In this document: piece after piece, positions 1,701 to 52,562 of the stretch
Position numbering within the stretch: the first letter of the stretch is position 1
Layout: each line of letters begins with the position of its first letter
DNA from: Escherichia virus KFS-EC3
Reading direction: 5' to 3' (one strand)
Sequence record: MZ065353.1
DNA: 64,000 nt
Translations under genes and position numbers: made by a program
The notes under the pieces: model-generated
What the model saw: only the letters and a program-made list of their open reading frames with translations
Databases searched by the model: none
Told to the model about the DNA's origin: nothing

Positions 1701-3758
1701 ATGGAACTTATTACAGAATTATTTGACGGCGCTTCGGCGCCGGTTGTTAACTTAAATCCTAAGCATAAAATACCTCAAATTTTTGCTATTCAAGCCGGTG
1801 AAGAAAGCGTGCTTCCTGGATTTAGATTTTGTACATACACCTCTGGCGGTGATACAAATAAAAACGTTAAGCCAGGCGATAAAATGATGCATATCGTAAT
1901 GATAGGTGTCAATGAGAAACTATCATTAGTTAAACTTAAAAACTTGGGTGGAAATCCAATTGGTGTCATTAATGCGGTTTTTGATACTGCTCTTCAAACA
2001 ATGAAACAGTATAAAATTGATGCATGCCTATTCCGCGTACTAAAAAGTAAAACAAATGGCGCAGCTCGTCAAATGCAAGTTATTGCTGACCGTTTAGTAC
2101 GTACTAAAGGAGCAGGTCGATATGTTCTTTTAAAGGAAATCTGGGATTATGATAAAAAGTATGCATATATTATGGTTTACCGTAAAAATGCCAATTTAAA
2201 AGACATTCCAGGTGTACCTCCTATTTCAACTGAGTTATTCACAAAAGTTGAATCAAAGGTTGGTGATGTTTATGTAGATGTTAAAACAGGTAATGCTGTT
2301 CCTAAAGCTGTTGCTGTTGCTGCTTCTATTGCTTTAGAAAATGATAAGCGCACGGATCAAGCTGTTATTCAGAAAACTAAAATTAGTCGTCGATTGGCAG
2401 CACAAGCTCAATATTCTACTGTCGATGCTTCGCTTCAGGGTGATAGCTTCGCTGCCAAGAAATATCAAGAGTTTGAATCTAAAGTTCCGGTATATAAAGC
2501 AGAAGGACCAATGAACTCTGGTGTTATTCAGATTGGTTCAAACTTCGGCAAAGGAGCTATCGGTGGTATGAGAAGTGCTTCTCGTTTTAAATCTAACGAT
2601 TATGAACTAGAAAGCTTCCGAAATCATATTGCATTGGCCCATGCACGTTTACGTGATCCGTCTATCAGACTGCAGAGCGATATAACACATCAAGGTTCTC
2701 AAGAATATTTAAAGAATAAAGAATTTTTTGATTATAAAACCGATAAAATTTTGAGCGATCTCGCTGACATTAATATTTCTAATAGCTTTGATGTTATTAA
2801 GAAAATTATCAATGATTTAGTTAAAGGTTCTAAAGCCACACCAGACGAAAAGGTAGCTATTATTCAATTTGTCATGAATGGCATTTATAAATTGATTAAT
2901 GAATCTGCTGCTCAGGCATATGAATACGCAAGCACCGAAGTAACTCCAAAAGGACTGACTCAGGCTGAGTCTGATGTAATTGAAGATTATTGTGCAGATT
3001 CATATGTTGAAATGAACTCGTTCCTCTTGGGTAAACCAGATTCTACCCGTGAAGAATATATGGAACGAGCTATTAAACACATCGAGACGCTGGATTCTGC
3101 CTTTGCCAAAGGTTCAGTTCTTCCTCCAGGAACTACGCTTTATCGTGGACAAGAAGTTACTTTTAAAACTTTACGCCATAATATTGAAAATAAAATGTTC
3201 TATTTCAAGAACTTCGTATCAACATCGCTTAAACCAAATATCTTCGGTGAGCATGGTAAAAACTATATGGCTCTAGATGATTCCGGCGCAGTATTTTCTG
3301 GTGAAGGAGAAGGTTCTGTTGATGCTGAAGATTTAATGCATATGGGCAGTCATTCTGCTTATGCGAATGAAGATGCTGAAACTAGCGTAGGTATGGTAAT
3401 AAAAGGAGCTGAGCGAATTAAAGTTATCGTTCCAGGTCATTTATCGGGATTTCCATCAGAAGCTGAAGTTATTCTACCGCGTGGAATTTTGTTGAAGATT
3501 AATAAAGTAAGCACGTACATGATGAAAGAAACTGCTTATAACAAGTATCTAATCGAAGGCACAATCGTTCCTCCTTCTGAACAATTAGAAGAATCGGTAT
3601 ATGATGGCGATCATCTAATGGAAACTGGTGAAGTTCGTCCAATGGCTGGGTTTAATCAATTCCTTGTAGAAGAATCAAAAGAAGAGGAAAACGAAGTTTC
3701 TCAAATCTTGGCTTCTTTGGTTAACATCAACGGAATGTCTAAAAAGTTCAAGATGTAG
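1701..3758 (+). CDS. alt: Alt ADP-ribosyltransferase (packaged, injected with DNA), 685 aa
   Basis: Length matches T4 Alt (~682 aa). R-STS-ExE motifs present (FYFKNFVSTSLKP, EAEVILPRG). N-terminus MELITE| fits the prohead protease (L/I)xE cleavage consensus. Sits next to gene 54 as in T4. Confidence 0.8.
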   Translation: MELITELFDGASAPVVNLNPKHKIPQIFAIQAGEESVLPGFRFCTYTSGGDTNKNVKPGDKMMHIVMIGVNEKLSLVKLKNLGGNPIGVINAVFDTALQTMKQYKIDACLFRVLKSKTNGAARQMQVIADRLVRTKGAGRYVLLKEIWDYDKKYAYIMVYRKNANLKDIPGVPPISTELFTKVESKVGDVYVDVKTGNAVPKAVAVAASIALENDKRTDQAVIQKTKISRRLAAQAQYSTVDASLQGDSFAAKKYQEFESKVPVYKAEGPMNSGVIQIGSNFGKGAIGGMRSASRFKSNDYELESFRNHIALAHARLRDPSIRLQSDITHQGSQEYLKNKEFFDYKTDKILSDLADINISNSFDVIKKIINDLVKGSKATPDEKVAIIQFVMNGIYKLINESAAQAYEYASTEVTPKGLTQAESDVIEDYCADSYVEMNSFLLGKPDSTREEYMERAIKHIETLDSAFAKGSVLPPGTTLYRGQEVTFKTLRHNIENKMFYFKNFVSTSLKPNIFGEHGKNYMALDDSGAVFSGEGEGSVDAEDLMHMGSHSAYANEDAETSVGMVIKGAERIKVIVPGHLSGFPSEAEVILPRGILLKINKVSTYMMKETAYNKYLIEGTIVPPSEQLEESVYDGDHLMETGEVRPMAGFNQFLVEESKEEENEVSQILASLVNINGMSKKFKM

Positions 3759-12404: not shown

Positions 12405-12635
12405 TTAAAAGCTTTCTTCTACTTCATCGTCTGAATCTTCTAATTCAGCTCTTTTTCCTGCCAAAGCATCTCTCACAGAGATGTCATCAGTATCTTTTAA
12501 TTCAGTTTCTTTAACTCTTTTCTTATAATAAGCTTCAAGTTCTTCTAGACCTTCTAATGTTTGGCAAGAGGCAATTTTACCCATAAATTCATCAATAGAA
12601 GCTTCATAAAGAAATTGTTTAAATTCTAGTAACAT
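12405..12635 (-). CDS. uvsW.1: UvsW.1 (76 aa)
   Basis: The track start at 12647 is a TTG; the ATG at 12635 gives 76 aa, the T4 UvsW.1 length, with a GGAG ribosome-binding site upstream. Confidence 0.7.
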   Translation of the reverse strand: MLLEFKQFLYEASIDEFMGKIASCQTLEGLEELEAYYKKRVKETELKDTDDISVRDALAGKRAELEDSDDEVEESF

Positions 12636-12646
12636 CTTTTTCTCCA

Positions 12647-12662
12647 AAGGGCCGAAGCCCTT
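12647..12662 (-). other. stable hairpin (UUCG tetraloop on the transcribed strand) between the HNH gene and uvsW.1
   Basis: AAGGGC-CGAA-GCCCTT palindrome overlapping the HNH stop codon. Confidence 0.4.
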
Positions 12663-13353
12663 ATAAATTAACTGTTTTTCTAAGTATTCTTAGTTTGTAC
12701 ATTGATAATCCAGTAGCTTTAGAAGCATCTTTCATACATTTATACTTAACACCATTTACTTCTATAGGTTTAGCAGCTGGGTTATTAGCTCCTGAATTAT
12801 CTGGCATATTATCTTTAATTTTCTGAATAGATTTAGCGGAATGTTTCCTTCCATACATGCCATTATTTTTACCTGATTGATTGATAGAATGCAATCTTTT
12901 AGCTTCTTCAGTCCATTTTGTTGGGTTCATTCTTTTAGTTTTACTAATTTTACTTCCCCATGTAATTGGACGATTTTTCATGAGTTTTGACATATATTGT
13001 TTATGTTCTTCCGTATGGTGTTTTCCGTAAAATGGATTACCTTCACCTGATTGAAGTTCTGCCATTTTACGACGTTCCCAGGCGTAAGATTTATTAACGT
13101 GTCTTTCATGAGTCTTTGAATTCATCCCCATACATATAACGGCTTTAATTATACCGTAATGGTTTGGATGAATTTTAGCTAAAAGTTTATGAGCTATAAA
13201 ATGCTCTTCAGCTGTTAGTTCTACCAAATTACACTTATCATCTGTACCGCCCATACATCTAGGAATTATATGATGAGTTTCAGTGTATCCATTAAGGCGA
13301 GCCCGATTCTGGGCTCTATTAATTAAATTATCGTATATTAATTTATAATTCAA
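12661..13353 (-). CDS. free-standing HNH homing endonuclease (230 aa) inserted between uvsW and uvsW.1
   Basis: HNH core HHIIPRCMGG...NLVELTAEEHFIAH; C-terminal basic DNA-binding repeats; start ATG overlaps the uvsW stop (ATGA). Confidence 0.8.
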   Translation of the reverse strand: MNYKLIYDNLINRAQNRARLNGYTETHHIIPRCMGGTDDKCNLVELTAEEHFIAHKLLAKIHPNHYGIIKAVICMGMNSKTHERHVNKSYAWERRKMAELQSGEGNPFYGKHHTEEHKQYMSKLMKNRPITWGSKISKTKRMNPTKWTEEAKRLHSINQSGKNNGMYGRKHSAKSIQKIKDNMPDNSGANNPAAKPIEVNGVKYKCMKDASKATGLSMYKLRILRKTVNL

Positions 13354-14858
13354 AGTTTAACCTCTTTCATCACATAATTAAACTTCTCATCAGCATAACG
13401 CTGAATACGATCAAGTCCATGTTTTAAAAGATAGTTTAAATGCGAGTATTTTTTAGAAGATGTTTTTGATTTAGAAACTACGCCCGCGTCATCTATGAGG
13501 TCCCAGACCGTTGCGATTGTTTTAGAACCATGCTTACGTAATACGCGACCTATTGTTTGCAATACAATAATTTTAGATTTAACACCGTGTGCTAAAACAA
13601 CGTGATGCAGATTTTTAACTGAAATGCCAGTAGAAAATACACCATAACTAGCTACTATAATTATTCCTTTACCGTTTTCAGCTAAGGTTTTCATTATATT
13701 GCGGGTTTCGGTATCAACTTCCCCTGATACGTAATAAACTTTATCGTATTCATTTTTAATTAAATCGAAAATAGCTTTACCATGTGATACATGCTTAAAC
13801 ATGACAAAAGCGTTTTCATCTTTTTGCGCAAGCTTAATAGCTAATTTAGCGATCCATTTATTTCTTTTACTGAGTCCAGTAATAATTTTTATTTCTTCTT
13901 GGTAAGTTTTTCCCTTTAATTTAGTAGTGAACTCATCGGGATAGCGAAGAAAAATACTATTAATTTTTAACTCAGTTACTTGTCCATCTTCCATTAATTT
14001 AGAAGTCGTTACTGGCTTAAATATTTCACCGAACATTCCAACATACTGCATGATATTAGCTTTGCCATCACGTAATGAACCAGACAAACCGAATTTGAAC
14101 ATGCAGTTATTTAAACCTGATATGATAGATGAAATACTTTTTCCTGTGGCAAGATGGCATTCATCATTCATCATCATTCCAAACTGTGAGAACCATTCTT
14201 TCGGTTGTTTTACTACAGTTTGCCATGTACCAACAACGACTGGTGCATCATTTTTATATTTATCATCTTTTGATGCTCCACCGCCGATTTTCTTTATCAT
14301 TGCATGACTGAATAAACGATAGTCAACAAAGTCATCAGCCATCTGAGTTGTCAGAGCAGTTGTTGGAACAATGATAAGAATTTTACCTTCATAATTTTCC
14401 AAATAATAACGTGCAAGCAAAGCTTGAATTAAGGATTTACCTGCAGATGTTGGAAGATTAAGAATTCTACGACGATTAACTAATCCTTCGAACACTGCAT
14501 CTTTTTGATACCAATGCGGTTCAATTCTTTTATTTCCTGAATAGATTTCTAATTTAGAAAGCCATTCATCAAAATCTTTTCTTGATAATTCTTCTTTTTC
14601 GTTAATCTGTGGGTCAATCCAGGCTTTATAGCCAAAGTTATCACAGAACTTTTTAATTTGCCCGACTAAGCCGAATGGAAGAAGACGATTATAATCTAAA
14701 AGACGGATTCGTCCATCCCAGTTGCCATATCTGAAGCGAGGATTAAACCTATATCCATCGGCCTCAAACGAAAAGAAATCTCTTAATTCGTGGAACGTGC
14801 TCTCTTCACAATCGATGCGTACATGACTGAAGTCGTGAAAATGTACTTTAATATCCAT
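13350..14858 (-). CDS. uvsW: UvsW DNA/RNA helicase (SF2)
   Basis: 502 aa; N-terminus MDIKVHFHDFSHVRIDCEE and Walker A PTSAGKS match T4 UvsW. Confidence 0.9.
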   Translation of the reverse strand: MDIKVHFHDFSHVRIDCEESTFHELRDFFSFEADGYRFNPRFRYGNWDGRIRLLDYNRLLPFGLVGQIKKFCDNFGYKAWIDPQINEKEELSRKDFDEWLSKLEIYSGNKRIEPHWYQKDAVFEGLVNRRRILNLPTSAGKSLIQALLARYYLENYEGKILIIVPTTALTTQMADDFVDYRLFSHAMIKKIGGGASKDDKYKNDAPVVVGTWQTVVKQPKEWFSQFGMMMNDECHLATGKSISSIISGLNNCMFKFGLSGSLRDGKANIMQYVGMFGEIFKPVTTSKLMEDGQVTELKINSIFLRYPDEFTTKLKGKTYQEEIKIITGLSKRNKWIAKLAIKLAQKDENAFVMFKHVSHGKAIFDLIKNEYDKVYYVSGEVDTETRNIMKTLAENGKGIIIVASYGVFSTGISVKNLHHVVLAHGVKSKIIVLQTIGRVLRKHGSKTIATVWDLIDDAGVVSKSKTSSKKYSHLNYLLKHGLDRIQRYADEKFNYVMKEVKL

Positions 14859-14860
14859 AA

Positions 14861-15478
14861 TTATGCCTTACTAAATTTGCCTTTAGAATCTCTTTTCATG
14901 AGACGACCTTTAATAAATCCGTCGGGAATAATACCGTCTGGTTGTATTAATTTATTTATTGCGCCATTATTGACCCAAAAAGTTCCTGTTGTAGTCGGTT
15001 TGACTTTACATCCTTTTCTGGACTTTCTATTAGGATGAACCATCCCTTTTACAAATCCTTCTGGAACAAGTTCTCCAGGCTTAATAAAAATATTTTTAGT
15101 TCCATTAGTGTAACAAGTTGTACCTAATACCGTGCCCGGTGAGTTTTCAAATCTCTTAGCGGAAGATTCTTTCATCTTTGCTATAACCTCTGTAGTCATA
15201 ACAATTCCACCAATTCCACCAGGTTTCATATTATAATAATTTTTGCTTTTTATCAGTTCAGGAGTTATAATTTCTTCTTCATACATGTACGCTTCTTCGG
15301 AAGTTTTAAACTCTTTTAGTATTTTTCTAGAGAAATTGTTTTCACCATATTTCTTTATAGCCTGCTGAATTGCCTTACCGGAACCAAGGTAGCCATCATT
15401 CAGGTCGTCAGTAGAGTGCTTTCCTATATACTTTTTACCATTTATTAGATTTGTTGTTTCGTATACAAAGTGGTACAT
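14861..15478 (-). CDS. segD: GIY-YIG homing endonuclease (seg family; segD position)
   Basis: N-terminal GIY-YIG-type motif (YHFVYETTNLINGKKYIGKHS) and C-terminal repeated basic DNA-binding motifs; lies between uvsW and inh as segD does in T4. Confidence 0.65.
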   Translation of the reverse strand: MYHFVYETTNLINGKKYIGKHSTDDLNDGYLGSGKAIQQAIKKYGENNFSRKILKEFKTSEEAYMYEEEIITPELIKSKNYYNMKPGGIGGIVMTTEVIAKMKESSAKRFENSPGTVLGTTCYTNGTKNIFIKPGELVPEGFVKGMVHPNRKSRKGCKVKPTTTGTFWVNNGAINKLIQPDGIIPDGFIKGRLMKRDSKGKFSKA

Positions 15479-46906: not shown

Positions 46907-48605
46907 TTGTGTATTGACCAGATGAAATAGAACTCATAGATGCCATTTTTTCTGTCCAATCACCACCAACGTCCCAATCAACTGTCCCAGCAACTTTCCA
47001 AGAAAGATTTCCATTTACTGTATTAGTCTGATTTCCTTCAACTAAAGTGGTAGCATCTCCTTTAACTGTAATGTCAGCATTACCTTCAACTACAATAGTA
47101 ACATTACCTTTGACTAGGATAGTTCCATTACCTTCAACCGTCTTAGTTTCATCGCCACGCACAAATATTGTATTGCTTCCATCTATTTGGTGGAGACGAT
47201 TATCCATGTTGTAATAAATTTCTGACCCACCGACGTTAGTCTTTTTATCGCCAGCTACCAAAAAATTACCATCAGCATTTGTTATATCATACAAATTATC
47301 AACAGTTTTTCTTGTTCTTCTTCCTGACGGTGATACTTCCTCATATGTTCCAGTCGGATGAACTAATCTGTATCGTTCTTGCCCAGGGGTATCATCAAAT
47401 TCCTGAATATGACCGCTTTCAGTTTCCATTGTGTGAACATACGGATATTCGCCTTTATATGAAGAAACAGGTTCTTTAAATAAAATTCTCGAATCATTCG
47501 GAATAGGAGGGTCAGCTGGATCAGAAGACTTTGCTACAGCAGCAGCCATTGCTGACAAAGACCTAGCCGGTGTTTTCACTTCAATACCGTATGATTCCAA
47601 ATTACCCGTAAGAATAATCATGGTAACACGGGATGCACGGCCTTTTGTTTGTTGATACCACAATGAATCACGACCAGCTTTATATGCTTTTTCCCAATCT
47701 CCGGCTAACATAGCAGTTAACATTGTGTTAAATTTAGCTACACCGCCAACACCCATCTGAAATGCCATATTTTCTAATGCCATTTGACGAGAACGATTAA
47801 CTGCCTGCCAAACTGGGCCAACTTTAGAATGTGATTTAATGTCACGTTGCATATCAGCCAAATCACGTTCAAATAAAGTTACCGCTTCTTCCATTGTAAT
47901 AGAACCTGGATTTCCGGTAATTTCACGACCAACTTGTTTTGATAAAACTTTATTAATTTGAGTCATATCACGAACTGGCTGCTTCATGATAAGATGACCA
48001 ATACCAATTGTCGGATATCCTTCAGTATCCCAATAAACTTTTAGTCTTAATCCTTCATCACGGCGAAGCATTTCAGCCATTGACATATTTGGATTATCAT
48101 CAGTTGGAATTTCTGACAGCGGTCTATCATCAGGATTTATCGCAGTGTCTAGATTACTGTCTTGGATAATATTAGAAGACGAATCATATCCTACTTCTCC
48201 GCCTTGGTTTAATACGTTAGTATCATTTCCTAGACGTCTAGGATACTGTCCAGTCGGGTCAGAAAATCCTTCAAGTCTATTAGGCTTTTCGCGAACTATT
48301 CCACCATACGTGCCAAGGACAATTCCGTTAGTTTTCCATTTGTCTAAAAAATGACCATAAACTCTAGTTCCTTCTACTGGACCAGTAACGGAGCCTCCAA
48401 TTCCAGACATTGCTGCAGAAGTTATAGGTTGAATAACTGACATCCATGGTAATTTATCAGTTGGAATACCCATTACGTCGCCTTGTGCTCTTTGAGGTGG
48501 ATGCAGACCAACTACACGAACACGAACACGACCTAATTTTAATGGGTCCATTCTATCTTCAACAACACCAACAAACCAATTAAGGTTATTACTTATCATT
48601 TCCAT
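46878..48605 (-). CDS. 5: gp5 baseplate hub + tail lysozyme (cell-puncturing device)
   Basis: 575 aa as in T4 gp5; the central region carries a T4-lysozyme-like domain (compare gene e: DTEGYPTIGIGHL). Confidence 0.95.
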   Translation of the reverse strand: MEMISNNLNWFVGVVEDRMDPLKLGRVRVRVVGLHPPQRAQGDVMGIPTDKLPWMSVIQPITSAAMSGIGGSVTGPVEGTRVYGHFLDKWKTNGIVLGTYGGIVREKPNRLEGFSDPTGQYPRRLGNDTNVLNQGGEVGYDSSSNIIQDSNLDTAINPDDRPLSEIPTDDNPNMSMAEMLRRDEGLRLKVYWDTEGYPTIGIGHLIMKQPVRDMTQINKVLSKQVGREITGNPGSITMEEAVTLFERDLADMQRDIKSHSKVGPVWQAVNRSRQMALENMAFQMGVGGVAKFNTMLTAMLAGDWEKAYKAGRDSLWYQQTKGRASRVTMIILTGNLESYGIEVKTPARSLSAMAAAVAKSSDPADPPIPNDSRILFKEPVSSYKGEYPYVHTMETESGHIQEFDDTPGQERYRLVHPTGTYEEVSPSGRRTRKTVDNLYDITNADGNFLVAGDKKTNVGGSEIYYNMDNRLHQIDGSNTIFVRGDETKTVEGNGTILVKGNVTIVVEGNADITVKGDATTLVEGNQTNTVNGNLSWKVAGTVDWDVGGDWTEKMASMSSISSGQYTIDGSRIDIG

Positions 48606-49179
48606 AAGATTTCTCCATTATACGTATAAGGTCGTTCATAAATGAATTGATGTCTGATTTTGCTATTATTTTTATTTGACGAAGTTTTTCATTTTCAAGA
48701 ACAGCAGCTTCATACGTATCGACCGCAGCAAGTGCTCCTTCATATTGAGGATATTTTCTAGCTTTATCGCCTTTGTCATACCAAACATATGGATTATCAT
48801 CGTATGATATTAAATTATAAAATTTTTCACCGTTCTCATTCACATGATATACTATTTGGTCTCCACCTACATTTTTGTATTTTTGTATAGATGCTTGATA
48901 AGCAGCTTCTTGCGAAGTAATCCATCCATAATACGGATCATAATTATCATTACACATCAATAAAACCCAATACAACTGCGGATTTCCATATATAGCATTT
49001 GCTAATTCTTCCGGGCGTGGTGAACCTTTGATATAGTAAGTGCGTAAGCGATATCCCGCAAGAGCGCGTTTGAAATAGTCTTTATAGTTTCTAAAAATAT
49101 CTGTCATAGGAATAGTCGGCGCGTTTTTATTCACCGTTTTGGCCGCATATTCAATCGGATCAAAAAATGTAAAGAGCAT
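48589..49179 (-). CDS. 53: gp53 baseplate wedge subunit
   Basis: 196 aa as in T4. Confidence 0.9.
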   Translation of the reverse strand: MLFTFFDPIEYAAKTVNKNAPTIPMTDIFRNYKDYFKRALAGYRLRTYYIKGSPRPEELANAIYGNPQLYWVLLMCNDNYDPYYGWITSQEAAYQASIQKYKNVGGDQIVYHVNENGEKFYNLISYDDNPYVWYDKGDKARKYPQYEGALAAVDTYEAAVLENEKLRQIKIIAKSDINSFMNDLIRIMEKSYGNDK

Positions 49180-49192
49180 GGGCCCTCCTGTT

Positions 49193-49215
49193 TATAAATA
49201 TATTATCTATTTATA
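49193..49215. promoter_or_regulatory. divergent late promoters (TATAAATA on both strands) for genes 4 and 53
   Basis: tataaata at 49193-49200 (plus strand, toward gene 4) and tatttata at 49208-49215 (minus strand, toward gene 53). Confidence 0.6.
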
Positions 49216-49226
49216 AGGAGAATCCA

Positions 49227-49679
49227 ATGGCATATTCTGGAAAATGGGTTCCTAAAAATATATCAAAATATAGAGGTGACCCTAAAAAAATTACGTATAG
49301 ATCAAATTGGGAAAAATTCTTTTTTGAATGGTTAGATAAAAATCCAGAAATTATTGCATGGGGTAGTGAAACAGCAGTAATTCCTTATTTTTGTAATGCA
49401 GAAGGGAAAAAACGTAGATACTTCATGGATATTTGGATGAAAGATTCTTCTGGTCAAGAATTTTTTATTGAAATAAAACCTAAAAAAGAAACACAACCAC
49501 CAGTTAAACCAGCACATCTAACAACTGCAGCGAAGAAAAGATTTATGAATGAAATTTATACATATTCCGTTAATACTGATAAATGGAAAGCAGCGCAAGC
49601 TTTAGCTGAAAAGCGCGGAATAAAATTTAGAATTCTAACAGAAGATGGATTACGAGCTCTTGGCTTTAAGGGGGCATAA
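49227..49679 (+). CDS. 4: gp4 head completion protein
   Basis: 150 aa as in T4. Confidence 0.85.
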
Positions 49680-50506
49680 TGGCTATTTTTCAAATAATTA
49701 ATGAAAGCACTCCCCAAGTTCCAAAGGTTAAGCAATCATTAAACGAAAAGAAATGGATTCAGATAGGTCTTGAATACAAAAAGGCCAAAGCAAAAGGAAT
49801 GACAGGAAAGCAATTTGCTGAAGAAAGAGGAATCAAATACTCTACGTTTACTTCAGCAATGTCAAAATATGCTTCAGGAATTAAAACAGCTGAAAAGATT
49901 CAAAAGCTTGAATCAAAACCAATGAATAAACTCAATAAGCAAGAAAGACAACTGCTTATGATAAATTCATTCAGGCAAACGTTGCGTGATAAAATTCGTA
50001 ATGAAGGTGCAGCAATTAATAATAAAACCAGAAAGTGGTTTGCTGAAACTATTAAGCAGGTAAAAGGACATAAAGTTGTTCGCCCGCAGCCGGGACGAAT
50101 ATATGCTTTTGCTTATGATGCTAAACACAAGGAAACTCTTCCTTATTGGGATAAATTTCCTTTGATAATTTACCTCGGTTTAGGTAAACACAATTTAATG
50201 TACGGATTGAACTTGCACTATATTCCACCTAAAGCTCGTCAGCAATTTCTAGAAGAGCTTTTAAAGCAATATTCAAATACACCTACTATTACTAATAAAA
50301 CGAAATTAAAAATTGATTGGAGTCAAGTGAAAGGATTTAGGGGTGCAGACCAAATGATTAAGGCATATATACCTGGTAATATTATGGGTAGCCCTGTTGA
50401 AATCGCCCCGAAAGACTGGGCGAACGTTGTGTTAATGCCACTCCAAAGCTTCTACTCCAAAGGAAAACGTTTCTCTGCAAACAAAGTTTGGAGCAATGTA
50501 CGATGA
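49679..50506 (+). CDS. 2: gp2 DNA end protector protein
   Basis: 275 aa (T4: 274). Confidence 0.85.
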
Positions 50507-51162
50507 ATTATGAAAAAATTTATAATTCACTAATTGATAGGGCTCGCAATAGAGCCCTTACTGGATATAAAGAAAGACATCATATTATTCCGAAATGTTT
50601 AGGCGGTAGTAATGATGCTTCTAACTTGGTTGATTTAACTCCAGAAGAGCATTATGTTGCACATCAGCTATTAGTAAAAATACACCCAAATTCTTTAAAA
50701 TTATCTTATGCAGCCATAAAAATGACGGTTTCAACTAAATATGTTAGGAGAAATAATAAAGTTTATGGTTGGTTAAAAAGAAAACATGCAAATAATATTT
50801 CAAATACACAAACTGGACGAAAATATTATAATAATGGTAAAAGATGTATAAAATTACATGATGGAGATATAATTCCTGGGGGATTTATTTTAGGAAGAGG
50901 ATGGAGTCCGACACAAGGAACAACTCATTCTAGAAAAAATGACACGTTTAAAAACAAAAAGCTTCAATCTGCTTTAGCTAATAAACGGTGGGAAAAAGAA
51001 AAGAAAATAATGTTAGATAACTTTGGAGTTAACACTATTGATGAAGCAAAGAAAATTGTTCTTGATTTTAAATCAACTTGTCATCCAAGATATTGGCGAA
51101 AGCCAACTTTAGAAAAATTTCCATTTATGACTTCTGCTCGTTTAAGAAGTCTAATAAATTAA
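50503..51162 (+). CDS. free-standing HNH homing endonuclease (219 aa), paralog of the one at 12661..13353, inserted between genes 2 and 3
   Basis: The track start at 50488 is a TTG; the ATG at 50503 overlaps the gene 2 stop (ATGA). HNH core [11 protein letters not shown]...[14 protein letters not shown]. Confidence 0.8.
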
Positions 51163-51268
51163 TTCTATTATCTTCCATTCTTTTCTATTGTTTGTTCTAA
51201 TTGGAATTGAATGGAAGGGACTTAGACCCATTATACCACCAACATTTATAAAGCATTATGAGGAATAT

Positions 51269-51799
51269 ATGTCGCAAGCACTACAACAAATTTTTAACCA
51301 AGCAAATACAACTAACTTTGTAGTATCAATACCACATAGTAATACTACATCTGCTTTTACTTTAAATGCTCAGTCAGTTCCTATTCCGGGAATTAGGATA
51401 CCTGTTACTGATACCGTGACTGGGCCGTTTGGACTAGGCCGAGCACAGCGTCCAGGAGTTACATTTGAGTATGATCCACTCATCGTGAGATTTATAGTTG
51501 ATGAAGAGCTTAAGTCGTGGATAGGAATGTATGAATGGATGCTAGGAACTAGTAACTATCTTACAGGCGAAAATACTGCCCAAAAAACAGGTCCTGAATA
51601 CATTACGCTTTACATTTTAGATAACAGTAAAACTGAAATCGTGATGTCAATAAATTTTTATAAGCCTTGGGTTTCTGACCTGTCTGAAGTAGAATTTAGC
51701 TACACGGAAGATTCAGACCCGGCTTTAGTATGTACAGCAACGATTCCTTATACGTATTTTCAAGTAGAAAAAGATGGCAAAATTATAGCAGAAGTTTAA
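51269..51799 (+). CDS. 3: gp3 tail tube terminator / tail completion protein
   Basis: 176 aa from the ATG at 51269 (the track ORF is extended upstream to 51188); AGGA ribosome-binding site. Confidence 0.85.
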   Translation: MSQALQQIFNQANTTNFVVSIPHSNTTSAFTLNAQSVPIPGIRIPVTDTVTGPFGLGRAQRPGVTFEYDPLIVRFIVDEELKSWIGMYEWMLGTSNYLTGENTAQKTGPEYITLYILDNSKTEIVMSINFYKPWVSDLSEVEFSYTEDSDPALVCTATIPYTYFQVEKDGKIIAEV

Positions 51800-51848
51800 T
51801 GCTTCAGTTTCATGTGTTATAATCTTAACTAAATTTGAGGAGAAACAT

Positions 51849-52561
51849 ATGAAACTAATCTTTTTAAGTGGTGTAAAGCGTAGTGGAAAAGATACTACTG
51901 CAGATTTTATTATGAATAATTATTCTGCAGTTAAATATCAACTTGCTGGTCCTATTAAAGATGCATTGGCTTATGCATGGGGTGTATTTGCAGCAAACAC
52001 TGACTATCCTTGTTTAACTCGTAAAGAGTTTGAAGGAATTGACTATGATCGTGAAACTAATTTAAATCTGACTAAATTAGAAGTAATTACGATTATGGAA
52101 CAAGCATTTTGCTATCTTAATAGTAAAAGCCCAATTAAAGGTGTGTTTGTTTTTGATGACGCAGTTAATTTCGTAGCATTTAACAAGATTGCTGACGTTA
52201 TAAATAATATTGAAGATCAATGGTCAGTCCGTCGTCTGATGCAAGCCCTAGGTACGGATTTGATTGTTAATAACTTCGACCGCATGTATTGGGTAAAATT
52301 ATTTGCTTTAGATTATCTTGATAAATTTAACTCAGGTTATGATTATTATATCGTTCCTGATACTCGTCAAGATCATGAAATGGATGCGGCTAGGGCGATG
52401 GGTGCTACAGTAATTCATGTAGTTCGTCCTGGTCAAAAATCCAATGATACACATATTACAGAAGCTGGATTGCCAATTCGTGATGGCGATTTAGTAATTA
52501 CAAACGATGGTTCTCTTGAAGAACTTTTTTCTAAAATTAAAAATACACTAAAGGTACTATA

Positions 52562-52562
<1 letters not shown>
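51849..52562 (+). CDS. 1: gp1 deoxynucleoside monophosphate kinase
   Basis: 237 aa; N-terminus MKLIFLSGVKRSGKDT (P-loop) as in T4 gp1. Confidence 0.9.

Follow-up and report, generated by a model that had tools for sequence, protein, structure and literature searches.

Between late genes 2 and 3 of the window (the whole 64,000-nt stretch of Escherichia virus KFS-EC3, MZ065353.1, that was analysed) lies an additional open reading frame. This locus raises the question of what the frame encodes, how it came to sit at the end of gene 2, and whether it is still mobile. A preliminary description had proposed that it is a second HNH endonuclease, paralogous to one found next to uvsW and inserted into a late operon. 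The genes concerned are:

49679..50506, + strand: gene 2, DNA end protector, 275 aa; the host gene, with a recoded 3' end
50503..51162, + strand: putative Mob-type HNH endonuclease ORF, 219 aa, from the reading frame, its sequence and the RB32 annotation
51269..51799, + strand: gene 3, tail completion / sheath stabiliser, 176 aa (PF06841); the downstream neighbour
12661..13353, - strand: Mob-type HNH endonuclease gene paralogous to the gene 2/3 ORF, 230 aa; it follows uvsW directly and starts with TTG within a TTGA overlap

The gene 2/3 reading frame and its protein family

Genes 2 and 3 were identified from annotated T4 and RB32 records, to which they are 96-99% identical in nucleotide sequence, and the model PF26869 (Phage_T4_gp2) matched in orthologous contexts. 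The endonuclease frame runs from the ATG at 50503 to the TAA at 51160-51162. Position 50488 is merely an in-frame TTG upstream of this ATG, and since all 23 of the 23 orthologues open with MNY, we place the start at 50503. At the other end, 51268 is the last base ahead of the gene 3 ATG (51269). The overlap with gene 2 that had been described is real: in the ATGA at 50503-50506 the first three bases are the endonuclease ATG, and the TGA (50504-50506) is the gene 2 stop. The GC content of the frame is 29.7%, compared with 35.6% in gene 2 and 37.5% in gene 3.

Sequence comparison makes it very likely that this frame, located where gene 2 meets gene 3, encodes a free-standing homing endonuclease of the HNH type and of the T4 Mob family. 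The protein matched phrog_655 'homing endonuclease' (E=6.5e-59) and 2884 homologues at E<=1e-10, and by this measure its homology to homing endonucleases is far above chance. In BLASTP against T4 proteins, its N-terminal 62-125 residues were 38-62% identical to MobB/C/D/E (MobB 1e-29, MobE 2e-26, MobD 2e-22, MobC 5e-17), with a weaker match to the MobA fragment (4e-6). The homology lies in the N-terminal nuclease module of the Mob proteins (MNYxxIY...HHIxPxxxGG...NLVxLTxxEH). Residues H26, H27, N41, H50 and H54, together with many C-terminal positions, are invariant across the 23 orthologues (44-64% identity). In the AlphaFold model (mean pLDDT 88, pTM 0.57, extended shape), strands 24-27 and 42-45 and helix 47-60 form a beta-beta-alpha core with pLDDT ~94. 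Sequence and model thus both point to a His-Me finger core with its His...Asn...His residues, and the protein may act as a metal-dependent nuclease. The model predicts the following layout:

~aa 20-60: HNH core
aa 88-103: helix
aa 106-119: beta-hairpin 'YYNNG...P.GF..GR', followed by a low-confidence linker
aa 152-218: helical C-terminal domain

The top Foldseek matches to this model were HNH domains, all of them weak; no fold match was significant, the C-terminal domain included, and no PDB chain was matched by sequence. Searches of Pfam and NCBIfam returned only sub-threshold HNH and IscB matches, with HNH_5 at 17.8 bits (cut-off 27.5) and HNH at 16.5 bits (cut-off 21.4). Because the uvsW-associated paralogue and the homologue P0025 likewise fall below the Pfam HNH thresholds, this shortfall suggests a limit of the HNH models and is not evidence against membership. 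The C-terminal part contains no NUMOD1/NUMOD3 or I-TevI-type DNA-binding motifs. A motif 'xNNG...P.GF.KGR' is common to residues 106-132 and to a Seg-like ORF of the window. Among the Tequatrovirus copies, variable codons comprise 9 synonymous and 4-6 non-synonymous changes, an excess that we count in favour of selection on the protein.

Pairwise alignment with the uvsW-associated protein supported the claim of a shared N-terminus and different C-terminal regions. The two proteins share 54 of 98 residues (55%, E=4e-34), and no similarity was found past about residue 98; only the uvsW copy carries two NUMOD3 motifs, along with a weak I-TevI-type (HTH-type) DNA-binding match. The uvsW paralogue was found in 48 of ~516 related records, independently of the gene 2/3 element, and ESh26 carries one of the two HNH genes while T6 carries the other. 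By these comparisons and the N-terminal identities to MobB-E, the two genes belong to separate branches of the known Mob family, both of them old. The proposed 'active' diversification is thus overstated: the lineages are old, their distributions independent, and the gene 2/3 lineage has diverged between genera to the same degree as the neighbouring core genes.

Insertion site, distribution and expression

We found a 659-nt element placed precisely after the last sense codon of gene 2 and before the original gene 2 stop. Its right-hand boundary is defined by two features:

51160..51162, + strand: endonuclease TAA stop, at the alignment position of the gene 2 stop in genomes with an empty site
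51163..51268, + strand: native gene 2 to gene 3 spacer, 106 nt, outside the element; collinear with the T4 spacer with scattered substitutions only

In the empty-site phages T4, T6 and RB5, and in ~93% of Tequatrovirus records, gene 2 is directly followed by the same 106-nt spacer and gene 3, and variation within the spacer shows no linkage to the insertion. Both neighbouring genes keep their full length and their collinearity with T4, and the frame lies outside any intron or intein, as expected of a free-standing gene. A match of the last 109 nt of the query to empty-site phages, annotated there as 'DNA end protector', raised the suspicion of a duplicated gene 2 tail downstream of the insertion; this was rejected, since the match overlaps the stop codon only. 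A relic copy of the gene 2 end was also considered, as the 3' end of the element, AAGTCTAATAAATTAA, resembles the gene 2 end, AAAGTCTGGTCAAATATCTAA, and the Manna allele is recombinant exactly at AAGTC. Against such a relic, the C-terminal peptide of the element is itself conserved and the Gaprivervirus ends are dissimilar.

The element is present in 36 of ~505 Tequatrovirus records (~7%) at 98.3-99.7% identity, and the rest have the empty site. In Gaprivervirus, it is present in 9 records and absent from 25, with the same geometry and the same 659-nt length. Insertion-free alleles are thus abundant in synteny comparison, which bears out the earlier claim of an insertion, and the sporadic presence among near-identical genomes is that of Mob genes. 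Orthologues at 52-63% identity occupy the same post-gene 2 slot in Gapriver- and Kanagawavirus and in Serratia and Acinetobacter phages, and 77 Straboviridae records have the C-terminal domain, with one copy per genome. The gene touches or overlaps the gene 2 stop in every context examined, namely VR25, P479, Kosakonia 305, Morttis, Serratia SP1 and 4S, and five metagenomic contigs; in L168 it is still at this stop although gene 4, not gene 3, comes next. Between genera the endonuclease has diverged as far as the core genes on either side, which fits long vertical residence as well as repeated homing. Decayed copies were also found, with a 486-nt internal deletion in CT01, a 1-nt frameshift in FL23 and FL44, and loss of the stop codon in Manna. 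Such stages of decay would be expected of a selfish element.

A terminase-associated HNH protein was considered and rejected, as T4-type phages package by a headful mechanism and most relatives do not have the gene.

For expression of the gene, three features are relevant:

49193..49200, + strand: consensus T4 late promoter TATAAATA, ahead of gene 4; no second one lies before the endonuclease on this strand
50504..50529, + strand: predicted 11-bp A/U-rich RNA hairpin that takes in the last two bases (U and G) of the start codon and the codons right after it
50539..50558, + strand: predicted 7-bp G/C hairpin AGGGCUC-GCAAUA-GAGCCCU, over codons 13-19 (RARNRAL)

We found no other promoter-like site upstream on the + strand before gene 3, and a terminator scan of 49100-51900 on this strand detected no terminator-like site. 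A sigma-70 promoter scan gave 7 sites against 11.8 expected. As the promoter at 49193 is the only one upstream, the late operon presumably runs 4-2-HNH-3, and the co-transcription with late genes proposed earlier is plausible.

The minimum-free-energy fold of 50478-50560 reached -24.1 kcal/mol (z=-5.5), and none of 200 shuffled sequences was equally stable; RNA structure in the gene 2 to gene 3 spacer was not significant (z=-1.1). The start-proximal hairpin, conserved only partly in orthologues, may be a translational brake that ties initiation to ribosomes finishing gene 2. The second hairpin was found in 11 of 12 orthologues with differing stem sequences. Its pairing is kept in 76% of cells compared with 68% in shuffled alignments (0/500) and at most 49% in slid controls, and its covariation score is 0.277 against 0.140 (0/500), with 5 pair types at one pair. 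Like the mobE hairpin, it lies in the 5' coding region, ~27-35 nt past the start codon. However, the stem in the window is followed by CCCUUACUGG, with no U-tract. Its function may therefore differ from that of the mobE hairpin, because the U-tract is missing here and an efficient terminator would starve gene 3. A hairpin common to the whole Mob family was rejected, as T4 mobB, mobC and mobD and most metagenomic relatives have none.

The recoded end of gene 2 and the proposed homing cycle

To compare carriers and non-carriers, we used 21 singly fetched genomes and BLAST identity bands, since IMG/VR has only three close Tequatrovirus contigs. Of 149 informative sites from gene 4 to gene 1, 14 are linked to the insertion, all of them at 50443-50498, in the last 64 nt of gene 2; the records share ancestry and include RefSeq/GenBank duplicates, so that the Fisher p-values make the association look stronger than it is. 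The nearest flanking sites, 50434 and 51187, are unlinked. Haplotypes to the left and right are fully shuffled with respect to the element, which therefore occurs in many backgrounds. The end of gene 2 is divided as follows:

50443..50458, + strand: block 1 of the recoding, CTCCAAAGCTTCTACTCC (LQSFYS) against CTTCAGCAGTTCGTTTCA (LQQFVS) in most empty-site phages
50459..50487, + strand: unlinked 29-nt gene 2 stretch, codons KGKRFSANK, with no insertion-linked difference in the 21-genome alignment
50488..50506, + strand: block 2 at the left junction, GTTTGGAGCAATGTACGATGA in place of GTCTGGTCAAATATCTAA

Block 1 holds 9 substitutions in 16 nt, each present in 9-10 of 10 carriers and 0-1 of 11 non-carriers in the 21-genome alignment. 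Among the records, the carrier type of block 1 was found in 37 of 37 carriers and in ~15 of ~466 non-carriers, whereas the common type was found in 0 of 37 and 451 of 466, respectively. This makes block 1 a candidate cleavage or immunity determinant. In the 29-nt stretch that follows, the only difference among the 21 genomes is one private substitution in the non-carrier IMG86, and the peptide SKGKR(F/Y)SA.KVW is kept across Straboviridae; the stretch is a candidate binding site for the DNA-binding domain. In block 2, the change of a Ser codon from TCA to AGC makes a GGAG Shine-Dalgarno sequence at 50491-50494, 8 nt before the endonuclease ATG, and the end of gp2 changes from ...SNI* to ...SNVR*.

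In Gaprivervirus, 7 fixed differences between carriers and non-carriers were found among 101 variable columns, all of them 27-69 nt upstream of the junction, and the codons equivalent to block 1 are the sole fixed differences. Judged from these alignments, the pattern is independent of that in Tequatrovirus. Taken together, these data suggest that, through its recoded gene 2 end, a carrier is probably shielded from the nuclease that it encodes. However, physical proximity and shared history alone can produce linkage over ~60 nt. Since ~15 empty-site phages also have the carrier-type block 1, this block could just mark the genetic background that first received the element.

The protein family, the insertion geometry, the sporadic distribution, the decayed copies, the shared slot in several genera and the tight linkage of the recoded end are established by these comparisons. 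From them we infer nuclease activity, homing, where the cut falls, immunity and the two regulatory roles. During mixed infection, the enzyme would nick or cut the 3' end of gene 2 in a co-infecting element-free phage, by analogy with MobE, SegF and SegG. Recombination repair from the carrier would then copy the 659-nt element, together with the adjacent ~60 nt of recoded gene 2, into the recipient. The carrier would be spared by the recoding of its own gene 2 end, through the 9 changes in 16 nt of block 1 and the block 2 junction. Expression would be parasitic on the late 4-2-3 transcript, with no promoter of its own; translation would use the GGAG made by the recoding, with the ATGA coupling the start to gene 2 termination. 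Output would be damped by the start-proximal hairpin and by the conserved hairpin at the mobE-terminator position.

A fuller version of this cycle is tentative, and we rate it at slightly below an even chance. The mobile unit would be a ~720-nt cassette (50443-51162): it would bring along a recoded copy of the final 20 gene 2 codons that is immune to cleavage, a ribosome-binding site built from the recoding and a borrowed host stop. Its lineage would have resided on the gene 2 stop since before the split of Tevenvirinae and Twarogvirinae. Three allele classes (sensitive empty; block-1-recoded empty; recoded occupied) would pin the recognition or immunity determinant to a 16-bp block, and expression would be governed throughout the clade by a covarying 5' hairpin that the gene has in common with mobE, the uvsW paralogue and the mobA remnant.

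Could the gene instead be an inactive or no longer mobile relic of one ancestral insertion, kept by linkage to essential late genes and lost piecemeal, so that loss and ordinary recombination produced the sporadic pattern? We consider this unlikely. Degenerate copies, divergence between genera that matches the core genes, carriers at only ~7% of Tequatrovirus records and the demonstration of activity for few Mob genes (PMC2988022) would all agree with it. However, the window copy is intact with all HNH residues, and the HNH and many C-terminal positions have stayed invariant at 44-64% identity across 23 orthologues, with more synonymous than non-synonymous changes. The shuffled haplotypes on both sides place the element in many backgrounds, and a simple deletion would not restore the exact empty-site GTCTGGTCAAATATCTAA that is present in >450 records.

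Co-option for the benefit of the phage, by marker exclusion of competing T-evens around genes 2 and 3 or by action against host or satellite DNA, appears still less probable. T4 homing endonucleases do cause marker exclusion of T2 (PMC2988022, PMC2790892), and the lineage is long conserved at one locus in many genera. Yet most close relatives are without the gene, decayed copies are tolerated, and family searches found only homing-endonuclease families and no defence or anti-defence domain; moreover, marker exclusion is a by-product of homing and not an alternative to it. That the frame is non-functional, arisen by chance or by misannotation of the spacer between genes 2 and 3, is already refuted. 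Nothing beyond the sub-threshold Pfam scores would speak for it, and a 219-codon frame in ~30% GC DNA, the homologues counted above, full-length orthologues in several genera and a confident structure model speak against it. Homing by a Mob-type endonuclease, as set out above, is the likely reading and the one that we prefer.

Comparison with known systems

As such, the gene adds little, being one more catalogued Mob-like homing endonuclease. Its value is as a tractable case for the poorly understood Mob family, in which MobE alone has activity data and no target has been defined in vitro. Public genomes offer a precise empty site, linked recoding in two independent genera, and empty sites that bear the putative immunity block. 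The locus is also an example of an element inside an essential late operon without polar damage, with a reused host stop, putative translational coupling and a hairpin free of a U-tract.

The gene is already known and is annotated in RB32 and dozens of relatives. RB32ORF146c (YP_803088.1) and the copies in RB33, HY03, fPS-2 and vB_EcoM_112 are the same gene, with the same position and gene 2 overlap, at 99.2-99.5% nucleotide identity and with no difference of substance from the window gene. The RB32 record notes a homing endonuclease 'similar to mobB; not conserved from T4 position', and a 2010 review counted two mob-like HNH genes in RB32 (PMC2993671). No experimental work on RB32ORF146c was found in the literature searched.

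T4 MobE, encoded between nrdA and nrdB, is 62% identical to the gene 2/3 protein over the first 63 residues. Both genes are free-standing, sporadic HNH genes that are promoterless and dependent on an upstream-gene transcript (presumably so at gene 2), with a hairpin at the same codons of the 5' coding region. For mobE, a weak intrinsic terminator inside the gene and a nick site in polymorphic flanking sequence were demonstrated, and MobE is the only Mob protein shown to act, as an in vivo nickase that resisted in vitro work (PMC2790892); mobA-D are given as 'ND' in Table 1 of PMC2988022. The MobE target lies in polymorphic flanking coding sequence beside a conserved block (PMC2790892), and the end of gene 2 suggests the same arrangement. 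The differences are that MobE has 141 aa without the long C-terminal region, targets nrdB, and has a hairpin with a U-tract that terminates 30-50% of transcripts, whereas the gene 2/3 hairpin lacks a U-tract, the element is hosted by late virion genes and the endonuclease start overlaps the upstream stop. T4 MobB, MobC and MobD are also free-standing, with the same N-terminal HNH module (38-53% identity) and variable C-terminal regions that are unrelated to the gene 2/3 protein past about residue 125; their loci differ, and their genes have no 5' hairpin.

In the 'intronless homing' of SegF and SegG, a neighbouring conserved gene is cleaved in the element-free genome, repair copies the element with flanking markers, and polymorphisms of the carrier give immunity (PMC2988022). 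The gene 2/3 element would follow the same mechanism by analogy, although these enzymes belong to the GIY-YIG family and not to HNH. Their cleavage sites are hundreds of bp from the insertion, compared with the ~60-nt linked tract at gene 2. Another HNH nickase, I-HmuI, encoded in an intron of SPO1 (PDB 1U3E), is extended and modular: an HNH domain at the N-terminus is followed by C-terminal modules that bind DNA. The model of the gene 2/3 protein is likewise extended, but this protein is free-standing and without NUMOD motifs, whereas I-HmuI is intron-encoded and has them, as does the uvsW paralogue.

The HNH gene and its relatives

The HNH ORF between genes 2 and 3 is real; it encodes 219 aa, starts at 50503 and ends at 51162. 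Its ATG forms the first three bases of an ATGA overlap, and the gene 2 TGA the last three. The preliminary description gave 50488 as the start of its range, which is an in-frame TTG upstream of this ATG. Since MNY opens all orthologues, the true start is 50503. T4-type coliphages (Tequatrovirus) share 96-99% identity with the region, with Shigella phage ESh26 as the closest match (99.1%) and RB32 and RB33 at 97.4%.

Gene order around the gene 2/3 element (the insertion with the HNH ORF)
48589-49179, -, gene 53
49227-49679, +, gene 4
49679-50506, +, gene 2
50503-51162, +, HNH ORF, 219 aa
51163-51268, spacer of 106 nt
51269-51799, +, gene 3
51849-52562, +, gene 1

The GC content of the element is 29.7%, compared with 35.6% for gene 2 and 37.5% for gene 3. 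The head completion protein gp4 (gene 49227-49679, +) matches Pfam Tn7_TnsA-like_N (E=1.7e-21), an endonuclease-type fold, and is named 'head completion nuclease' in some records.

To place the HNH protein, we compared it by BLASTP with MobA-E from the T4 reference genome, and found 38-62% identity to T4 Mob proteins across the first 62-125 residues (E-values: MobB 1e-29, MobE 2e-26, MobD 2e-22, MobC 5e-17). The phrog_655 profile, 'homing endonuclease', matches both HNH proteins of the window (E=6.5e-59 and 1.6e-61), and with the Pfam HNH models the protein scores under their thresholds. Residues H26, H27, N41, H50 and H54 are unchanged across 23 full-length orthologues. In the AlphaFold model (mean pLDDT 88), which is extended (pTM 0.57), a beta-beta-alpha unit (pLDDT about 94) carries the HNH residues.

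Parts of the AlphaFold model
N-terminal part, HNH core
aa 88-103, helix
aa 106-119, beta-hairpin carrying YYNNG...IKL, then P.GF..GR
after the P.GF..GR stretch, low-confidence linker
C-terminal, long helix and three-helix bundle

The ORF is already known as an annotated member of a known family. The note for the same gene in RB32 (RB32ORF146c) reads 'similar to mobB; not conserved from T4 position', and two mob-like HNH genes were listed for RB32 by Petrov et al. (PMC2993671).

The second HNH gene of the window adjoins uvsW; its TTG start and the uvsW stop overlap as TTGA.

Genes around uvsW
12405-12647, -, uvsW.1
12661-13353, -, HNH paralogue, directly after uvsW
13350-14858, -, uvsW
14861-15478, -, GIY-YIG Seg-type homing endonuclease ORF, 205 aa (SegE_GIY-YIG at 5.9e-9), immediately upstream of uvsW

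Hence uvsW has a homing endonuclease gene on each side, the Seg-type ORF upstream and the HNH ORF downstream. The Seg-type ORF has two 'xNNG...P.GF.KGR' copies, and the gene 2/3 HNH protein has this motif too, at aa 106-132. Protein alignment of the two HNH products confirmed the proposed common N-terminus (54/98 identities, E=4e-34) and the proposed difference between the C-terminal regions, with no similarity past about residue 98. In the uvsW paralogue a domain search found NUMOD3 twice and, as a weak match, an I-TevI-type DNA-binding motif; it found neither in the gene 2/3 HNH protein. The paralogue is sporadic, with 48 carriers among about 516 related records (present in T6 and W143, missing from T4 and ESh26), and the two elements are distributed independently of each other. 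The preliminary description, which took the two genes for copies of one endonuclease family, was correct in all points, and so was its interpretation.

Insertion geometry and conservation of the slot

The claimed insertion between genes 2 and 3 was borne out by insertion-free alleles, such as that of T4, where gene 2 is followed by the same 106-nt spacer and gene 3. In alignments, the endonuclease TAA (51160-51162) falls on the T4 gene 2 TAA, and the element is 659 nt placed after the last gene 2 sense codon and before the original gene 2 stop. We found the complete element in 36 of about 505 records (at least 95% identity across the region, RefSeq/GenBank duplicates counted in), at 98.3-99.7% identity; the remaining records match the flanks only. 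Decayed copies were found in CT01 (174 nt left after a 486-nt internal deletion), FL23 and FL44 (1-nt frameshift), CE1 (3-nt in-frame deletion) and Salmonella phage Manna (L152, locus 2304-3599; stop codon lost). The endonuclease 3' end of Manna is recombinant and reads ...AAGTCAAATATCTAA; this is the gene 2 ending of empty sites, with the join at the microhomology AAGTC. The Manna record annotates one 432-aa ORF continuing into gene 3, which may reflect a real fusion or be due to a sequencing error.

The C-terminal domain (aa 100-219) occurs once per genome in 77 records, all in Straboviridae. We inspected its contexts in VR25 and P479 (Gaprivervirus), Kosakonia phage 305 (Kanagawavirus), Acinetobacter phage Morttis (subfamily Twarogvirinae), Serratia phages SP1 and 4S, and five metagenomic or assembly contigs. 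In all of them the orthologue lies directly after gene 2, with its start either overlapping the gene 2 stop or adjoining it (ATGA, TTGA or TAATG). One contig of a divergent T4-like phage (L168, Logan SRR13090265, 92-2221) has the order gene 2, HNH element, gene 4, whereas the usual order is 4-2-3. Here the element overlaps the gene 2 stop despite gene 4 downstream, indicating that it is tied to gene 2 and not to gene 3. Identity between genera is 55-63% for the endonuclease, 59-71% for gp2 and 46-51% for gp3. The divergence of the endonuclease is thus inside the range of its neighbours, which argues for an old association, not a recent jump between genera. The element is sporadic in Gaprivervirus too (9 carrier and 25 empty records).

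Different Mob-like HNH genes were observed between genes 4 and 2 in P479 (locus L139, 1021-1668) and in locus L098 (1611-2270), and between genes 53 and 4 in loci L091 and L092 (about 1340-2050). These other insertions mark the 53-4-2-3 cluster as a recurrent landing zone.

Linkage to a recoded gene 2 end

Our alignment covered genes 4 to 1 in 10 carriers (decayed copies included) and 11 non-carriers. Only 14 of the 149 informative sites are associated with the element, all within the last 64 nt of gene 2 (50443-50498), and the nearest flanking sites, 50434 and 51187, show no linkage. The linked sites form two blocks, with 29 nt between them that hold no insertion-linked difference.

Linked blocks
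50443-50458, block 1: carriers CTCCAAAGCTTCTACTCC (LQSFYS), non-carriers CTTCAGCAGTTCGTTTCA (LQQFVS)
50488-50506, block 2 (left junction): carriers GTTTGGAGCAATGTACGATGA, non-carriers GTCTGGTCAAATATCTAA

A search with the 107-nt junction sequence gave three allele classes. The carrier type was found in 37/37 carrier or remnant records (common block 1 in 0/37), and the common type in about 451 empty-site records. In the third class, about 15 empty-site records (SG1, vB_SsoM_113, F26 and others), block 1 is of the carrier type and block 2 of the empty type. Escherichia phage T4_ev151 (LR597660.1), named as an evolved T4 derivative, has a carrier-type block 1 and no element; its allele may have arisen by recombination during an evolution experiment with mixed phages.

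In Gaprivervirus (2 carriers, 3 non-carriers), 7 of 101 variable columns are fixed differences, all 27-69 nt upstream of the junction and in the same codons as the linked sites of Tequatrovirus. The insertion is also 659 nt and lies before the original gene 2 stop. Gaprivervirus is an independent replicate of the linkage pattern.

This pattern is expected under intronless homing, in which the segment from cut site to insertion would always be co-converted and the carrier allele would have to be uncuttable. MobE has the same arrangement, with nick sites in a polymorphic nrdB stretch adjoining a conserved block (PMC2790892). As our best estimate, we infer that the enzyme would recognise the conserved gene 2 end (a 17-residue peptide) and cut empty-site genomes at block 1 or close to it. 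The 60-nt linkage can also be historical, and the roughly 15 empty sites whose block 1 is of the carrier type fit homing and history alike. These mixed alleles may be resistant alleles from a crossover in the 29-nt spacer, or they may represent the background where the element first landed.

Expression and the 5' hairpins

The only consensus late promoter upstream of the ORF on the + strand is at 49193, before gene 4, and a scan of the strand upstream found no further late-type, middle-type or terminator-like site ahead of gene 3. In carriers, a Ser codon change from TCA to AGC turns TGGTCA into TGGAGC, so that GGAG arises 8 nt ahead of the ATG. With the ATGA overlap, the ORF start can be coupled to ribosomes that finish gene 2. 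The 83 nt around the ORF start fold with unusual stability (-24.1 kcal/mol, z=-5.5) because of two hairpins there. A middle-promoter-like site, TGCTT...TATAAT, was also seen just upstream of gene 1.

Promoters and hairpins
49193-49200, +, consensus late promoter before gene 4
49208-49215, -, divergent consensus late promoter for gene 53
50504-50529, hairpin 1, 11-bp, A/U, includes part of the AUG
50539-50558, hairpin 2, 7-bp, G/C, over codons RARNRAL
51800-51825, +, middle-promoter-like site

Hairpin 2 is present in 11/12 orthologues with different stem sequences, and one pair appears as GC, AU, CG, UA and UG. Both its paired cells (76% vs 68% in shuffles, 0/500) and its covariation score (0.277 vs 0.140, 0/500) exceed those of shuffles, and slid controls are at most 49% paired. 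Some of the Mob genes share a G/C hairpin over 'RAxxRA' codons, in which third-position changes are compensatory. Equivalents were found in the uvsW paralogue (about 13296-13315, -), the T4 mobA remnant (locus L003, about 3800) and T4 mobE (locus L005, 5' end), and were absent from T4 mobB, mobC, mobD and most metagenomic relatives. In T4 mobE the stem-loop lies 27 nt past the AUG and has been proven to act as a weak intrinsic terminator (PMC2790892); hairpin 2 has the equivalent position. No U-tract was found at hairpin 2 of the window, which makes sense if gene 3 depends on read-through.

Taken together, this analysis adds the exact insertion geometry, the three allele classes, a slot conserved across subfamilies and a covarying 5' hairpin, as well as, for two genera, an obligatory link between the element and a recoded end of gene 2. 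The main gain is that the element is easy to test, and the added points agree with the known behaviour of MobE and the Seg endonucleases.
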